From positions 1,499,941 to 1,563,940 of the forward strand of contig BCIN01000003.1 in NCBI GenBank assembly GCA_039545335.1: 64,000 nt of DNA, read 5' to 3'. Positions within the stretch are counted from its first letter, which is position 1, and each line of letters starts with the position of its first letter. Made by a program: the position numbers and the translations under genes. The stretch is from Kondoa subrosea. Taxonomy: Eukaryota. The notes under the pieces were generated by a model. That model was not told where the DNA came from, ran no database searches, and was given only the letters and a program-made list of their open reading frames with translations. This document shows positions 33,627 to 40,551 of the stretch, piece after piece.

Positions 33627-36393
33627 ATGCCGCCCAAAACCAAGGATTCACCAGAGATCACTGCCTTAGCTAGTTCTTTTGAATCTTTTGGTCTTTCATC
33701 AGCCAAAGCTGTGGAAGTAGCTCGCAACACGAAACAAGCTACAGCTTTTAAGGAATACTTGTCCCTTGAATCAGAGCAATTGCAATCTAAAGCTGGCTCA
33801 CTCAATTCTAAGCAAGGCAACCTACTCTTCCAGCTTGCTACTAGTAATGAGACTTTGAGCGAAGAGGGCAGAGGATTGATTACAAAGGAAATATTGGATG
33901 AACGCTTGTTATCTGCAGATCAAGTCACAGGTCAGCTGGTTCTTCGCTGTAGCATCTTAAAGATGCTCAGGCTTCAGAATTGGCATGACAGAGGCTATCA
34001 AGTACTGCTCAAGTAATTCTGAGATCAAGCAAGATGAATTCGAGAAAGCTACTGGTATTGGCTACTCCATCACACCAGAAGAGATTCAAGCTATTGCTAG
34101 AGATTGGACAGGTCAACGTAAAGAAGAACTCGATCTAACTCGTTGGGCAGGAATAGGCAAAACTATGGGTGCTTTGAAATCAATCGCTTCTTTACGTTGG
34201 GCTGCTCCTTTGGATCTCAAGACTGCTACGGAAGCGGTTTATCTGGAAATCTTCGGTCCTAAAGAGGATAAAGCTACTTTGAAATCAAGGCAAAAGGTAG
34301 GTTTCTTCGATTGCTCTTTACCTTATGTAATGAGCGTGATCGCGGACTCTACAGGAAAAAGTTAAAGCTTCTAAACCTGAGGCATCCACTTCAACTCTCG
34401 CAGCAGCAAACTCAGCAGATTCTTTATCCGAAACCAAAATGTTTGAAGAAGGTTTCCTAGCTCGTTTACATAAACCAGGAGAAAACCCACAAGCTAATCC
34501 TGATCGAATGAAAGAACACTTATCTTTCACTCAAGGCAAAGTTTTCACTCGTTTCCCTCCTGAACCAAATGGTTATATGCATATCGGTCATCTGAAAGCT
34601 TTGGTTATCAATTTCGGTTTTGCCAAACATCATGGTGGTCATTGTTATTTACGTTATGATGATACGAATCCTGAAGCGGAGAAACAAGTTTATATTGATG
34701 CGATTTTGGAAAGTGTTAGATGGTTAGGATTCGACCCGTTTCAAGTCACTTTTGCTAGCGATCATTTTCAAAGATTGTTTGATTGTGCAAAAGAATTGAT
34801 CAAGAGAGGTTTGGCTTATGTGGATCATTCTACTGGTGAGTTCTACTTTCCCATCGCTCGTCGAGCTATCGGGTAAGGGTCGGACTTACAGCGGAGGAAA
34901 TGAAGATTCAAAGAGGTGGAGAAGAAAGAGGTCCTAGAGTTCCTTCGAAATGGAGGGACAGACCTATTTCGGAATCGTTGGAAGAATTTCAAGCTATGCA
35001 AGATGGAAAATATCAACCTGGACAAGCCGTTTTACGAATGAAGCAGAATTTGGAAGACCCAAATCCTCAAATGTGGGATCTGGTGGCATATCGAGTACTC
35101 AATACCCCTCATCATCGAACTGGTGATCAATGGAAAATATACCCTACATACGATTTCACGCATTGTTTGAACGATAGCTTCGAGAATATCAGGTTCGTCT
35201 AGGATTTGGCTATAAGCGAAGTGCATCGCTCAAGCCTAAGTCTCGATACGAACAGTCATTCACTTTGTACCGTCGAATTTATCTTATCTCGCCAATCATA
35301 CGAATGGCTCTGCGATGCATTAGACATGTATCGACCTCGTCAATCTGAATATGGTCGACTCAACTTGCAAGGTACAATAACATCGAAGCGGAAATTGAAG
35401 AAGCTCGTCGACGATCATCATGTCAAAGATTGGGATGATCCACGTCTCTATACTTTAGTCGCTCTTCGCAGACGTGGTGTTCCTCCTGGCGCTTTAAGAG
35501 CTTTCATCAACCAGCTCGGCGTATCTACAGCCCTTACAACTCTTCCTCTTGTCCGTCTCGACTCTACTATCCGTCAATACCTTGAAGTCCACACTCCTCG
35601 ACTGATGCTCGTTCTTGATCCCCTCAAAGTTACATTAGAAAACCTGCCAGAAGATTACGTAACGATGATCGAACGTCCCTGCCACCCAAAGAACCCAAAC
35701 ATGGGAACAACCTCTGTTCCTTTCACTCGAACAGTTTATATCGATCGATCTGATTTTCGGGAAGAAGATTCAGCAGATTATTTCCGTTTAGCACCTGGGA
35801 AATCAGTTGGTCTGCTATACAGCGAAAGACCAATCACATGCACATCTTTCAAGAAGAATGATCAAGGCGAAATTATCGAAGTGATTGCCAAATTCGAGAA
35901 CGAAGGACCGCTTTTCAAACCGAAAGCTTTCATCCAATGGGTCGCAGAACATAAACCTAGTGGAAGTCCAGTCATTGTTGACGAAGCGAGAATGTTCAAT
36001 CCACTCTTCAATACCGATAACCCAGCTCAAGCAGATGATTTCTTGGCTGATCTGAATCCAAACTCGTTACAAGTAGCAAAGAACGCGATGGTTGAGATCG
36101 GTATATGGGATGTAGCTACCCAAGGCCTGAAGGCGGCAAGAGAGGAAGCGAAAGAGCGCGAAACAATAGCCCAAAGCGATAAATCTGCCTCGACTCCAGC
36201 TATTCAGTCTTCAGATCTTGTTGGATTTGAATGCGTTCGCTTCCAGGGTCTCCGAACAGCCTACTTCTGCGTGGACAAGGATTCGAAGATCAAAGCGGTA
36301 GAAGAAGGGTCAGAGAAGGTGTATCACTCCGAGGTAGACAGACTGGTTCTCAACACTATTGTTGGATTGAAGGAGGATAGCTCGAAGAAATGA
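33627..36393 (+). CDS. GLN4: Glutaminyl-tRNA synthetase, multi-exon
   Basis: [76 protein letters not shown]. Confidence 0.97.
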
Positions 36394-36493: not shown

Positions 36494-39400
36494 TTACTTC
36501 AATTCATGCTCTTGCTCGCTGATCTCCAGGTTTTGAGCCGGATCAATGCTCATTTGTGCATCTGTAAAGCGCTCGGGATGGAACTCTCTCTTGACGAAGA
36601 TGGTGTATTCAGCACCAAAGAAGCGAGTGCGAATGTTGGCGATGACGAGGCGGAGAAGGAAGGCCGCCGCTGTCCAAAGTAAGCCGCCAACGGGACTGTA
36701 AGTGGTCCCAAGCAATTTCAGATCCAACGGATCATAGTGATCGCAATGACACTTACGCAGCAACGAAAGCGCCAAAGGTAGACCAGTCCGAGGCGTATAT
36801 GCCAGACTCAAGAATGAGAACACCTGCTGCTCGAGATGCATCGCCATTGTAATAGACCAAGCCGAAAAGGAAGACGGTGAACAGTCCTGTAAGTCATCGA
36901 GTCTCAACTGAGTGCTTGCACAAGAGATCCAATGGCTTACCTCCTAAACCACCAACAACCACATCAAAGCCGTTCATAAAGTACAAAGCTGGTACCAGAC
37001 CGAGCAAAATGGGTGGAAAGATGGCAGCCGAGACCAGATCGGAAATGAGGTAAAGAACCAGGATATCCTGTCATTGCTATCAGCGGACGATTCTCCAAGT
37101 ATCGGACATTTCGTACCAAGTTCAAGGTAGCCACAACAATAGCTGGAATGTTGACCAATAGGACCAGGCGAACCCACCAAAGATTGAGCTTGTTTCGGAA
37201 AACATCATTGCTGATTGAAGCGACAATGCCGCATTGCAGAGTATCGTAAGCTGCACAAGACATGCAGATGGCGAAGATGATACAGAAGCCAACCACCCAA
37301 GCTGGAAGTAAAGCGATGAGGTAGAAAAAGGCTGAAGAAGCTGCAACAGTATCGGCTGGATCGACAGCTCCTGACCACTGTATGTCGTGCATGGTCGTGA
37401 GCTAAGAGGTAGCTATCGACTACGTGCAACATACGACAGCGAGCATGCCCGTAATGCCAACCAAAACAAGGATGATAAAGACAAAAGCTGCTGCCAATGA
37501 GCATCCAACCCAAAGATCTAGGTACGTGTTAGTCAGCGCACATAGCTTGTGGCTGTGTGCAGGCGGACCTTTGTCGGTCTTCGAGGAGAAAGCTCGCTGC
37601 CAGAAACCAGTCAAGAAGTAATAGTTTGTTATGACCTGTCAGGTGGTCTTCAGACAGGACGCCAAGAACAATTACATGAAGTAGACTGACAGCAACAGGC
37701 AGGACTGAAAAGAGCATTAAGCTAGCACCTCAAGTAAGAATCATTGTCACATACTATATAATAGTTGCCATCCGAGCAAAGTACTGCCAGTCAGATTAGT
37801 CGAATTGACGATAGCTTGATCCTGTACACCACCATCAGAAAGAAGCTCAAAGACTAGGCGAAGTCTGTGGCGACGCACGATATTGACTTGAGTTCCCACA
37901 GCAATACTGCAAACGATGAGTAGGATGACAATCATGACTCCTTGAACATTGTCAGTAATGAGTGAAGTTCGGAAGCCACCAAGCGCTGCGAGTCAGAACC
38001 GGGTACCCATTAGCCTAAGTCAAAGCACCGTCTTTGCACTCACCAGTATAGATCAAAGTAACTATGACTTCTACGATCGTAGCGGCCAGACCACTCATTC
38101 CAGTTAGACCAGTGACGACGTAAGAGATCGAAGTGAGTTCAGAACACATGTAAATGAACTGTTCGCTTCACTTCAGCTTGATCAGTGGTACTGAGGGAAG
38201 TATCTTACGAGAGTCAAGACAGTGCATGCACCAACAAACAAAGCTGGAATGACGCCAAATCGCTCGCGAACATATTCAGTCAGAACGAAACCATGAGGAC
38301 AAGCTTTTCGGATCTTGCTAGCCAAATACGGGAAGGTCATAATGGGAATAGCTGAGGCGAACTGTCAGCATCGAGGCCTCACATCAATGCTAAATTGATT
38401 TCGCCTCTGTGTTCACTGACAGCGTATATAATGATTCCTTGAACTCCAGCAATGGTCCCAATTTGCGGATACTGACTATGCATCAGCAAAGTCCTAGCAG
38501 GAATAGCATGAACATACAGTGAACAGAATGCCAGAACCAAGACCTGGAAAAAGTCAAGTCAGTATGCTCAGTCAATTCTTACGAATAAAAGCGCCAGCGC
38601 GGAAAAAGCTTGTGGTAAAGCCAAACAAAGCATTTCGAAACATCGAAGTGGGATTTCCATTGCATCTCCTTTCCGCGCGAATTATCGCTTTCAAGTTCAA
38701 GCAGTTTTTCCTTTTTTGAATTAGGAAATCTCAGCCATTAGAGCAGGGATTTTGTTCCATTCCTTCTTCGCTAATCTCTGCTTGGCATTGCGCTGACATC
38801 CTTGATATGACTTCTCCTTTGTACAAGCATTAACCCTCTTCTCATCGACGAGAACGAGGAGGGTAGAACGCAAAAGCAGAAGTTATATCAAGGAAAGGCA
38901 AAAGAGAATTGTGAAGCAGAAAGGAAGCAAAGCCTCTCTATAGCACCCGCGATGCAAAGTGTCCATATATATTTCGATATTTCGCTTTGTGCAACTTGAC
39001 ACCAACTCTTTGAAGAAATTTCGACATACATTGATTTTGTGAGGATGAATGCAGTCTCTTAGCTCAAAGAGTTGTTTGTAGGTAAGGTAAAAGAGTGCTT
39101 CTGTGATTGTCCGCTCGAATTGTTCCGATCGCCAAATTTGGGTTTCCGTCAAACTTTCCGATAGTCATTGTGTAACTAACCAGAAGCAGCGAAATTGAGA
39201 GCCAAAGGGAAGGCTAGAATAACGGATTAGTAGCAGCCTGGGCCAGGAGGGCAGGACAGACCAGTCTGAGTACGAAGAGAGCTTAGATAATCTCCCTTGG
39301 AGTTCCGAAAACGCCAGCCAACAGCGAGACCGAAGATCAAGAAGACGCTGTAGGTAGTGTAGATGATGCCATTCGAGGCAGGTTCAGAAGGGAAACCCAT
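36494..39400 (-). CDS. Sodium:solute symporter, DUR31/NCU01977-type (probable thiamine transporter), multi-exon with one 637-nt intron
   Basis: MGFPSEPASNGIIYTTY..., YLSSLRTQT|AFPLALNFAAS|GLGSGILF, GGFRTSLITDNVQG, GFWQRAFSSKTD, CAAYDTLQ; carries an intronic TPP aptamer. Confidence 0.85.
38660..38957 (-). promoter_or_regulatory. Intronic TPP riboswitch aptamer with very long P3 arm
   Basis: RNA reads UUGCAUC(P1) GCGG GUG CUAUAGAG...~200 nt...CUCUAAUGG CUGAGA [hairpin] AA CUGC UUGAA CUUGAAAGCGAUAAUUCGCGCGGAAAGGA GAUGCAA(P1'). P1 is 7 bp, P2 is GCGG/CUGC, and the UGAGA and AUAAU signatures are present. Confidence 0.88.
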
Positions 39401-39868
39401 GCTTGAGTCTTGCGATTGGATTCGATTGTACGAGGACAAGATGTGACTCGAAACTATTTCTGGTCTGCTCGTCTCAGCCACTGCCATATATGCTCCGCTT
39501 GTCCAGTACAACATTCATGCATGGCTCATCCCTTCTCAGTGCCGGTCGCTGCATTGTAATGCACACTAGATTGCCAATCCAAACTTTCTTGATGCATGAC
39601 CTCCCTGTTCTTGCAGAGCCTTGATAGTCTTGCGCTCTTATGTTATAGCTTCTGTGCTCGTGCACTCTCTACTCGTCATGTCGCAATCCGCGCTGGAGAA
39701 TGTGCCTTGGTTGAGAAAGTGCCCATTCCACGGGCAGAACTAGATTATCAACAAGGCGTGAGGCGATCTTTTTGATTAGCCTCTCCTCTCTTCCTTCTTC
39801 TTCCTTACATACCTATTTGCACATCCAAAAGCTTGGATCCTTATCACGAGTCACGAAACTTACGAACA

Positions 39869-40551
39869 AGTCAGTTCTTGTTACAATTAGATGCTCGAAC
39901 GCGTCTCTAAATTATTCCTTTATCGCTACAGTGTTTCCCAAATTCATTCAAAAGGTGTTCGCCTTGGGCAACAGCAAGAAGCACAACGATTCCGAACTCT
40001 CTGCAGCTCGCGTTGCTCAAGCTCTAAACAAATCACTCGAAGTCTCTTCACGAAAAGTAGAAGCACCTCCTCCACGTCCTTCTACCCCTACCAATCGCTT
40101 GACCTCAAGCACAGCTAGTACTCCATCAAGTCGAAAAGGTTCTCTTTTACCTTCTTCAGCTTCCTTAACTAGCTTCTTTTCCCGTTCTTCATCAATGAGT
40201 GAAGATAATAATGATGGTTTCGATTTCAAATGCTGCTCACCTGCCAATTCACTAGAAACTGGAATCTTTACAGAAGAACCTTTGTACATTTTGGAGGAAG
40301 CTACTTTATTACCTCCTCTACCTTCACTTTCTTTGGTTGAAGAACTTCAAGCTTACACTTGGTCTTCTTCTTCTTCAGCTGTCGTTCGCAAATCTTCTTC
40401 TTTGAAAATGAGATCAAGACGCGATACTTTGTGCAAACGGGTGTCGGATGAAGCTTTGTTCAACCCAATTAGAGATGCAAAAAGGCAATCAGGGGATAGT
40501 GGGGAAAGCTCTTCGAGCGAAGGAGCTCCAGTCAGCTTAGCCTGGATCTGA
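39869..40551 (+). CDS. Ser-rich hypothetical protein; start codon apparently assembled by splicing (A|TG)
   Basis: Long open frame with no upstream ATG. Intron GTCAGT(39870)...CTACAG(39931) joins A to TG, giving MFPKFIQKVFALGNSKK. Confidence 0.55.

Follow-up and report, generated by a model that had tools for sequence, protein, structure and literature searches.

A divergent candidate thiamine pyrophosphate riboswitch in an intron of a DUR31/NCU01977-type transporter gene of Kondoa subrosea

Known DUR31/NCU01977 riboswitches and the Kondoa locus

Thiamine pyrophosphate (TPP) riboswitches are, to our knowledge, the only riboswitch class known in eukaryotes, and those of the DUR31/NCU01977 class control thiamine uptake in many fungi. 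Here we describe a putative member of that class from Kondoa subrosea, located on the minus strand of a 64,000-nucleotide (nt) stretch of contig BCIN01000003.1 (assembly GCA_039545335.1); this stretch is the window, and all coordinates are positions within it. As laid out by Li and Breaker (2013), Neurospora NCU01977 has a short intron, then exon 2, then a large intron that bears the aptamer. NCU01977 is described as the orthologue of Candida DUR31, which was shown to be a thiamine transporter under riboswitch control (Donovan 2018, PMC5997356). In published tables (PMC5882874), the Basidiomycota with urea-transporter riboswitches number only three (Punctularia strigosozonata, Malassezia globosa, and Tilletiaria anomala), to which a 2024 survey (PMC11683625) adds Malassezia furfur.

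We consider it reasonably likely, judging from sequence, that the Kondoa element functions as a TPP sensor and belongs to the fungal DUR31/NCU01977 ("urea transporter") riboswitch class; its aptamer would be a divergent, lineage-specific form and not a new ligand class. None of our findings suggests a new ligand or mechanism. With permissive filters, the Rfam TPP family, RF00059, matches 38650-38776 on the minus strand at 30.6 bits (E = 6e-4, for 801 nt searched against all 4227 families). The alignment is confident over CUGAGA, the hairpin that follows it, UUGAAC, P4, P5, and their junctions, and poor over P1, P2, and P3; CUGAGA is matched to the model's own CUGAGA at top posterior probability. 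A core pattern of 26 fixed bases and one Y is matched without any miss. The initial annotation had taken the element for a TPP aptamer, and this identification holds. Both the Rfam match and its position, in the single intron expected to carry such a switch, exceed chance.

The host gene (36494..39400, minus) is a DUR31/NCU01977-type sodium:solute symporter, as judged from homologues, Pfam, and tblastn. A 145-residue exon query found homologues with 62 to 86% identity over the aligned 51 to 66% of the query, the named ones being proteins of Hohenbuehelia grisea ("urea transporter") and Pleurotus pulmonarius (hypothetical); these nearest named relatives mark the source as a basidiomycete. Pfam searches of single exon-sized open reading frames (ORFs) of the host gene gave nothing useful, and the family call therefore rests on the homologues. 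One of these, the Pleurotus protein that served as tblastn query (P0008), matches the Pfam family SSF (PF00474), and the host exons align to it without stops, frameshifts, or frame breaks.

Exon 1 starts from the ATG at 39400 (39400-39262) and is followed by intron 1 (39261-39214; 48 nt) and exon 2 (39213-39181; 33 nt, AFPLALNFAASG), all placed by tblastn and direct reading. Intron 2 (38544..39180, minus; 637 nt), which carries the candidate riboswitch, was delimited by tblastn, reading, and a motif scan: its predicted 5' splice site is GUUAGU at 39180 and its 3' AG is at 38545-38544. The motif scan also marked a strong alternative 5' splice site, GUAUGU, at 39029 and a branch-like CUGAC at 38562. 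Exon 3 (38543-38518; 26 nt, encoding LGSGILFT) follows, with further exons up to a stop near 36494. A distance of 114 nt separates the aptamer from the downstream 3' splice site of intron 2. If the first 5' splice site is read through, the frame meets GGU UAG, an immediate stop.

By its host gene and its large intron, the locus belongs to the DUR31/NCU01977 ("urea transporter," Type II) class. Like Neurospora NCU01977, it combines a gene of the orthologous SSF family with an aptamer in a large coding-region intron, preceded by a short intron and a small exon 2, and it shares with that gene several 5' splice sites and a premature stop if the first of them is not used. The Candida parapsilosis DUR31 switch, in which thiamine is reported to repress the functional splice form, resembles it in gene family and intron location; that switch comes from a budding yeast, and the likeness is one of description, not base by base (Donovan 2018, PMC5997356). 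Closer by phylum and gene class are P. strigosozonata and T. anomala, whose urea-transporter aptamers are listed as intronic and "Type II" (PMC5882874); these two and that of M. globosa are likened here by their listed coordinates, not by sequence.

Aptamer core, pyrophosphate-sensing arm, and hairpin

The whole aptamer spans about 38658..38790 on the minus strand, from P1 to P1' in model A (below), as placed by the RF00059 match and the minimum-energy fold. Read directly from that strand, CUGAGA, the pyrimidine-sensing junction, occupies 38734-38729. A 6-bp hairpin follows (38707..38728): UUUCCU at 38728-38723, the 10-nt loop AAUUCAAAAA at 38722-38713, and AGGAAA at 38712-38707. After it come AA, CUGC (38704-38701), and UUGAAC (38700-38695). 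The pyrophosphate-sensing arm (38669..38695) then reads CUU (38695-93), GAA (38692-90), AGCG (38689-86), AUAAUU (38685-80), CGCG (38679-76), CGGA (38675-72), and AAG (38671-69). In the Rfam alignment these segments are P4 CUU/AAG with three pairs, J4/5 GAA, P5 (A)GCG/CGC(G) with three pairs and an A-G, L5 AUAAUU, and J5/4 CGGA. The letters and coordinates given by the initial annotation for UGAGA, the hairpin, and the P4/P5 arm all agree with this reading.

Sequencing error had been raised as an explanation for the unusual letters and is unlikely. Logan contigs from two DNA runs (depths 143 and 54.5), the only runs listed as containing this stretch and neither of them RNA, match the window with 0 differences over 38500-39250. 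Because both runs come from one sample, probably or possibly the window's own source, their agreement argues against assembly or read error and is not independent of organism or strain.

The arm held up as the usual fungal form, CUU GAU CUGG AUAAUA CCAG CGA AAG, is real: it occurs identically in fungal-like metagenome loci such as L018, L085, and L112, and again in a published catalogue of fungal aptamers. The Kondoa aptamer departs from this common consensus at the four places that had been named, namely, the hairpin after UGAGA, a U-to-A change in J4/5, an A-G at the base of P5, and an extra nucleotide in J5/4; the three pocket-side changes are present just as described. As ligand-contact motifs, Mukherjee (2018) names GAGAU, a GCG where P5' meets J5/4, a pair of G's spaced 18 apart, and, within L5, UAAU. 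Each is intact here: GAGAU at 38732-38728 (within CUGAGAU, 38734-38728), GCG at 38676-74, G38692 and G38674 18 apart, and UAAU at 38684-81. The three pocket-side changes adjoin these motifs, and none falls within them.

We compared these positions with a DNA pattern scan of metagenome contigs, which found at least 120 loci, mostly bacterial-looking; the pattern fixed UUGAAC, UGA, AUAAU, CG, and AAGG, and the sample of loci is shaped accordingly. Among the 120 matches listed, the third base of J4/5 is mostly U (101) and otherwise A (15), C (3), or G (1). The closing pair of P5 is C-G in 77, A-G in 5, G-A in 6, and A-A in 2, with purine-purine pairs in 13 altogether, and J5/4 has 4 nt in 5 of the 120, including two THI4 loci (L023 and L048). 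Aptamers with an A-G pair (L005, L013, L031, L087, and L107) and aptamers with GAA in J4/5 (L036, L046, L079, L090, and L105) pass the Rfam gathering score. The bacterial-looking L031 carries three of the four deviations, the only locus among the 120 matches listed to do so, and still scores 61 bits.

Motif counts in a 378-aptamer fungal catalogue gave ACTTGAT 156 times, ACTTGAA 10, ACCTGAT 25, and ACCTGAA 3, with at least one ACCTGAA lying outside the aptamer core and motifs broken by line ends being missed. The same counts gave 135 for GCGAAAGG, 3 for GCGAAAAGG, 3 for GCGCGAAGG, and at least 6 for forms with a 4-nt J5/4; GCGGAAAGG occurred once, but within a P3. Several Basidiomycota aptamers of the catalogue, in entries from Cryptococcus, Trichosporon, Rhodotorula, and Malassezia, have A or C at the J4/5 position. 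By these comparisons and the one that follows, all four deviations affect sites at which natural TPP aptamers differ from one another.

As for the hairpin, RF00059 itself has a stem directly after UGAGA, and the present hairpin is aligned there at high posterior probability; it thus occupies the P3a position, as a stem-loop between UGAGA and the P2 3' strand. P3a is reported as an optional element, present in 552 of 907 TPP aptamers and predicted to stack on P2 (Barrick and Breaker 2007, PMC2258182). Of the 120 matches listed, 41 have at least 15 nt inserted between CUGAGA and UUGAAC, and 39 of those 41 inserts fold at -2 kcal/mol or better. We found no such insert in 12 fungal-like metagenome loci, nor in the roughly 77 readable aptamers of parts 1 and 8 of the 378-sequence catalogue. 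The statement in the initial annotation that canonical aptamers have only a few unpaired nucleotides after UGAGA therefore does not hold for the family as a whole, and it does hold for the fungal aptamers compared. A 2022 paper says of P3a that it is "not found yet in eukaryotes," and a 2014 paper describes P3a in some diatoms.

Within the urea-transporter class, the aptamer is unlike the Ascomycota type as represented in the catalogue (...ACUCGAUCAAGUUAAUGCUUGCGUGGGAAACGU): here P4 is CUU/AAG, J4/5 is GAA, P5 is closed by A-G, and a hairpin follows UGAGA. Its likeness to the M. furfur urea-transporter aptamer, as presented in the 2024 survey (PMC11683625), extends to phylum, gene class, J4/5 GAA, and an extra hairpin in the central junction; in M. 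furfur, however, the hairpin lies after the P2 3' strand (J2/4) and the switch is in the 5' untranslated region.

One of the metagenome loci, L053, is bacterial-looking (GC 0.57); around 220-1299 on its minus strand it holds a P3a-bearing TPP aptamer beside a sodium:solute symporter with 27% identity to P0008. This agrees with the old association of the transporter family with TPP riboswitches noted by McRose (2014).

Folding, expression platform, and proposed mechanism

The minimum-energy fold of 38655-38790 (136 nt) recovers P1, P2, the hairpin, P4, and P5. In it, the P1 5' strand CAAUGC (38785..38790) pairs with GCAAUG (38663-38658) through five pairs and one A-A mismatch, which we take as the likely P1. 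The P2 5' strand (CAA)GCAG (38778..38784) forms a 7-bp Watson-Crick helix with CUGC(UUG) at 38704-38698; this P2 3' strand (38698..38704), placed by the Rfam alignment and by the fold, overlaps the conserved UUGAAC. The minimum-energy fold also draws part of CUGAGA into its P3 and so cannot be the bound form. Further models were considered, with models A and C and the unconstrained fold scored on 38650-38795. Model A, the ligand-bound model, keeps P1 and P2 and closes P3 by G38776-C38734 and AUUAG/CUAAU, at -17.3 kcal/mol. The P3 region (38734..38776) is a variable arm of uncertain pairing, with G38776-C38734, AUUAG (38775-71) against CUAAU (38741-37), and a weak distal part. Model C has a long P3 (GCCA..UGGC), pairs GCAG with CUGCU at 38746-38742, and lacks P2; it is possible as a ligand-free fold only. 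At the P1/P2/P3 junction, model A has P1 and P2 in their canonical places and a weak P3, the Rfam alignment picked a different and mispaired P1/P2, and a stabler fold exists without P2.

A further arrangement (model B) was rejected. It pairs AUUAGC with GCAAU as P1 and AGGAA with UUCCU as P2, has no hairpin, leaves 1 to 2 nt after UGAGA, and reaches -6.7 kcal/mol without P3.

The P2 3'-strand motif, CUGCU(U), recurs on the minus strand at 39189-39184, 38920-38915, 38879-38874, 38746-38742, and 38704-38699. One copy falls within the final bases of exon 2, right beside the first 5' splice site, and every copy could pair with AAGCAG (38783-38778), the P2 5' strand. These repeats might link splice site and aptamer over a long range, or might have arisen by chance in an intron rich in pyrimidines. 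A perfect 10-bp inverted repeat (38885-38894/38799-38808, minus; UCCUUGAUAU/AUAUCAAGGA) stands immediately upstream of the aptamer and encloses a second helix, 38908-38899 with 38821-38812; the inverted repeat is the source of weak microRNA-like Rfam matches.

Downstream of the aptamer we found a candidate anti-aptamer, CUUUUUCCGCGCUGGCGCUUUUAUUCG (38582..38608, minus), which is complementary to both P4/P5 strands. Its duplex with 38698-38667 is predicted at -25.7 kcal/mol, a value equaled or bettered by 38 of 1000 shuffles of the downstream 109 nt, and the centroid fold of the intron's 3' part contains it too. The segment abuts GUAAGA at 38582, which resembles a 5' splice site and stands 38 nt ahead of the 3' splice site. 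Folding the halves of the intron as a duplex over their whole length was uninformative.

On the mechanism we propose, TPP would bind between the CUGAGA junction, which would hold the pyrimidine, and the G...GCG junction of the P4/P5 arm, which would hold the Mg-pyrophosphate. Binding would lock P1 (CAAUGC/GCAAUG), P2 (GCAG/CUGC), and the P4/P5 arm, and the A/U-rich hairpin may stack on P2, as is predicted for bacterial P3a, or may be a tolerated insertion. Without TPP, the P4/P5 arm could instead pair with 38608-38582 and GCAG with 38746-38742, and splicing from 39180 to 38544 would yield the transporter mRNA. With TPP, productive splicing would drop, through intron retention or through use of GUAUGU at 39029, and the UAG directly after exon 2 would stop translation. 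That thiamine represses, rather than activates, is suggested by analogy with NCU01977 and Candida DUR31.

As for the surroundings, an intron-bearing gene for a class I tRNA synthetase of the glutaminyl/glutamyl type (34340-36393, plus strand) converges with the 3' end of the transporter gene; its Pfam matches are tRNA-synt_1c, anticodon-binding domains, and the Gln-tRNA synthetase RNA-binding region. Upstream of the transporter gene and divergent from it lies a serine-rich open frame of 278 residues (39715-40551, plus strand), a candidate gene with no Pfam match.

Working switch, relic, or altered ligand preference

The Rfam score is the most obvious difficulty. At gathering thresholds, nothing in the whole 64-kb window is matched, and the 30.6 bits of the Kondoa element fall short of the RF00059 gathering score, which is 54.3 bits in the Rfam 15 TPP model. 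As a control, we scored 20 loci from the metagenome pattern scan, together with L114, against the same model. Gathering was reached by 12 of the 20, but by only two of the 10 fungal-like loci among them (L018, 59.7 bits; L112, 59.5 bits); the other eight and L114 scored 32.8 to 51.1 bits, so that 9 of 11 fungal-like loci lie below gathering (L023, L048, L027, L057, L078, L085, L088, L093, and L114), ordinary-looking fungal aptamers though they are. Two of these low scorers, L023 and L048, are directly upstream of split Thi4 ORFs, and two more, L057 and L078, are upstream of ORFs for cytosine/purine-type permeases (for L057 the match is weak, with an E value of 2.5e-4, below the Pfam cut-off). 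Thi4 and cytosine/purine-type permease genes are known classes of riboswitch-bearing genes in fungi. Since 9 of 11 fungal-like controls also fail, the gathering score discriminates poorly in fungi; according to the 2024 survey, too, RF00059 frequently misses fungal aptamers.

Other observations, taken together, weigh against a working switch. At 30.6 bits, the Kondoa element scores lowest among the 12 fungal or fungal-like aptamers compared (the others reach 32.8 to 59.7), and all four deviations together occur in none of the 120 matches listed. By these models, the 5' half of the aptamer is weak and ambiguous: the P3 of model A has only -4.6 kcal/mol, which 123 of 200 shuffles equal, the fold of the whole aptamer has a z-score of -0.8, and model A, at -17.3 kcal/mol, is far less stable than the P2-less model C (-24.6) or the unconstrained minimum-energy fold (-29.2). 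The hairpin (-3.9 kcal/mol) is no stabler than chance, being equaled in 45 of 200 dinucleotide shuffles. The splice sites and splice forms of the host gene are predictions. Unlike NCU01977, the intron holds no exact match to the Neurospora alpha consensus RGCGGYRRY, whose only match with one mismatch lies inside P5, and it thus has no alpha element by that consensus, which is derived from Ascomycota (Li and Breaker 2013); nor is there a significant partner for the P1 3' shoulder. An alpha/alpha'-like pairing of 38993-38948 with 38669-38630, that shoulder, reaches -25.6 kcal/mol and was rejected as chance level (52 of 500 and 70 of 500 shuffles). A protein-guided search for DUR31 in metagenome contigs turned up no orthologous intron, since none of 53 pattern matches was confirmed by tblastn, and none of the 120 pattern loci listed adjoins a fungal-type DUR31 gene.

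Some of this could mean that an ancestral DUR31 riboswitch has escaped tight TPP control and is decaying, folding poorly or binding weakly in an intron that is now constitutively spliced, an account that the initial annotation had also raised and that we regard as possible but doubtful. It would explain why the lowest score coincides with four deviations at once, why helices are weak throughout (a weak P3, a P5 of three pairs and an A-G, a mismatched P1, and no fold statistic beyond chance), and why a competitor that lacks P2 outdoes the ligand-bound model by 7 kcal/mol. The three Basidiomycota of the published tables could also indicate that the class is often lost in the phylum; that rarity may, however, reflect an Rfam model that misses such aptamers. 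Against decay speaks where the changes lie: none affects the 26 fixed core bases, GAGAU, GCG, or UAAU, and all are at positions that vary in scoring aptamers, whereas an aptamer long released from selection should show changes at fixed positions too. Weak minimum-energy statistics are, moreover, common for short, junction-rich aptamers. It is also very unlikely that an A/U-rich stretch of intron mimics a TPP aptamer by chance. The score below gathering and fold statistics within chance would suit such mimicry, but the E value is 6e-4 even over 4227 families, the 26 fixed bases and Y are matched exactly, and the match sits in an intron of a gene family with known TPP riboswitches: it is the expected aptamer in the expected intron of the expected gene.

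If the element is a working switch, its ligand might still have shifted. The initial annotation put forward a changed affinity or ligand preference as one possibility; such a change, toward thiamine, thiamine monophosphate, or a precursor, would stem from the remodeled J4/5-P5-J5/4 pocket and the hairpin, but it gained no support here and looks improbable. In favor of the proposal, three pocket-side changes cluster at the pyrophosphate-sensing junction, the full combination is found in none of the 120 matches listed nor in the 12 fungal-like loci, and a transporter gene could in principle respond to the compound transported. Yet neither the bases reported to contact pyrophosphate and Mg, namely, the G of J4/5 and GCG, nor the distance between them has changed, A-G and GAA each recur singly in ordinary aptamers that pass gathering, and a 4-nt J5/4 is found in the fungal THI4 aptamers L023 and L048. 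The hairpin bears on a bolder version, in which the Kondoa aptamer would be the first in fungi to have a true third arm of the P3a type, on its pyrimidine side, together with a remodeled pyrophosphate junction (GAA, A-G, and 4-nt J5/4), representing an undetected basidiomycete DUR31 lineage that standard models miss, with affinity or selectivity possibly tuned differently; we think it quite unlikely. Like P3a of bacterial and archaeal TPP riboswitches, the hairpin is a stem-loop directly after UGAGA, one or two bases before the P2 3' strand; unlike it, the hairpin has an A/U-rich stem, a 10-nt loop, and shuffle-level stability. P3a-bearing aptamers are reported to have A-G or U-A as flanking bases (Barrick and Breaker 2007, PMC2258182). 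In model A the flanking bases are A38777 and A38706, an assignment that depends on where P3 starts, and this too counts against the reading as a working switch. Neither by stability beyond chance nor by the flanking-base rule, then, does the hairpin qualify as a selected P3a helix; it was probably inserted independently where insertions are tolerated, rather than inherited as P3a. If its helix proved genuine, this would, as far as we can find, be the first report of a P3a-like arm in a fungus, and a retuned junction, if true, could, for instance, make the pyrophosphate less essential, as would befit a gene whose product carries unphosphorylated thiamine.

Read as a lineage-specific but otherwise ordinary TPP riboswitch, the Kondoa element is a basidiomycete DUR31 copy that the curated Rfam threshold misses, and it serves as an example of what such thresholds overlook. 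Because the threshold misses both this copy and most of the fungal-like controls, surveys that rely on the gathering score probably undercount such switches in Basidiomycota.

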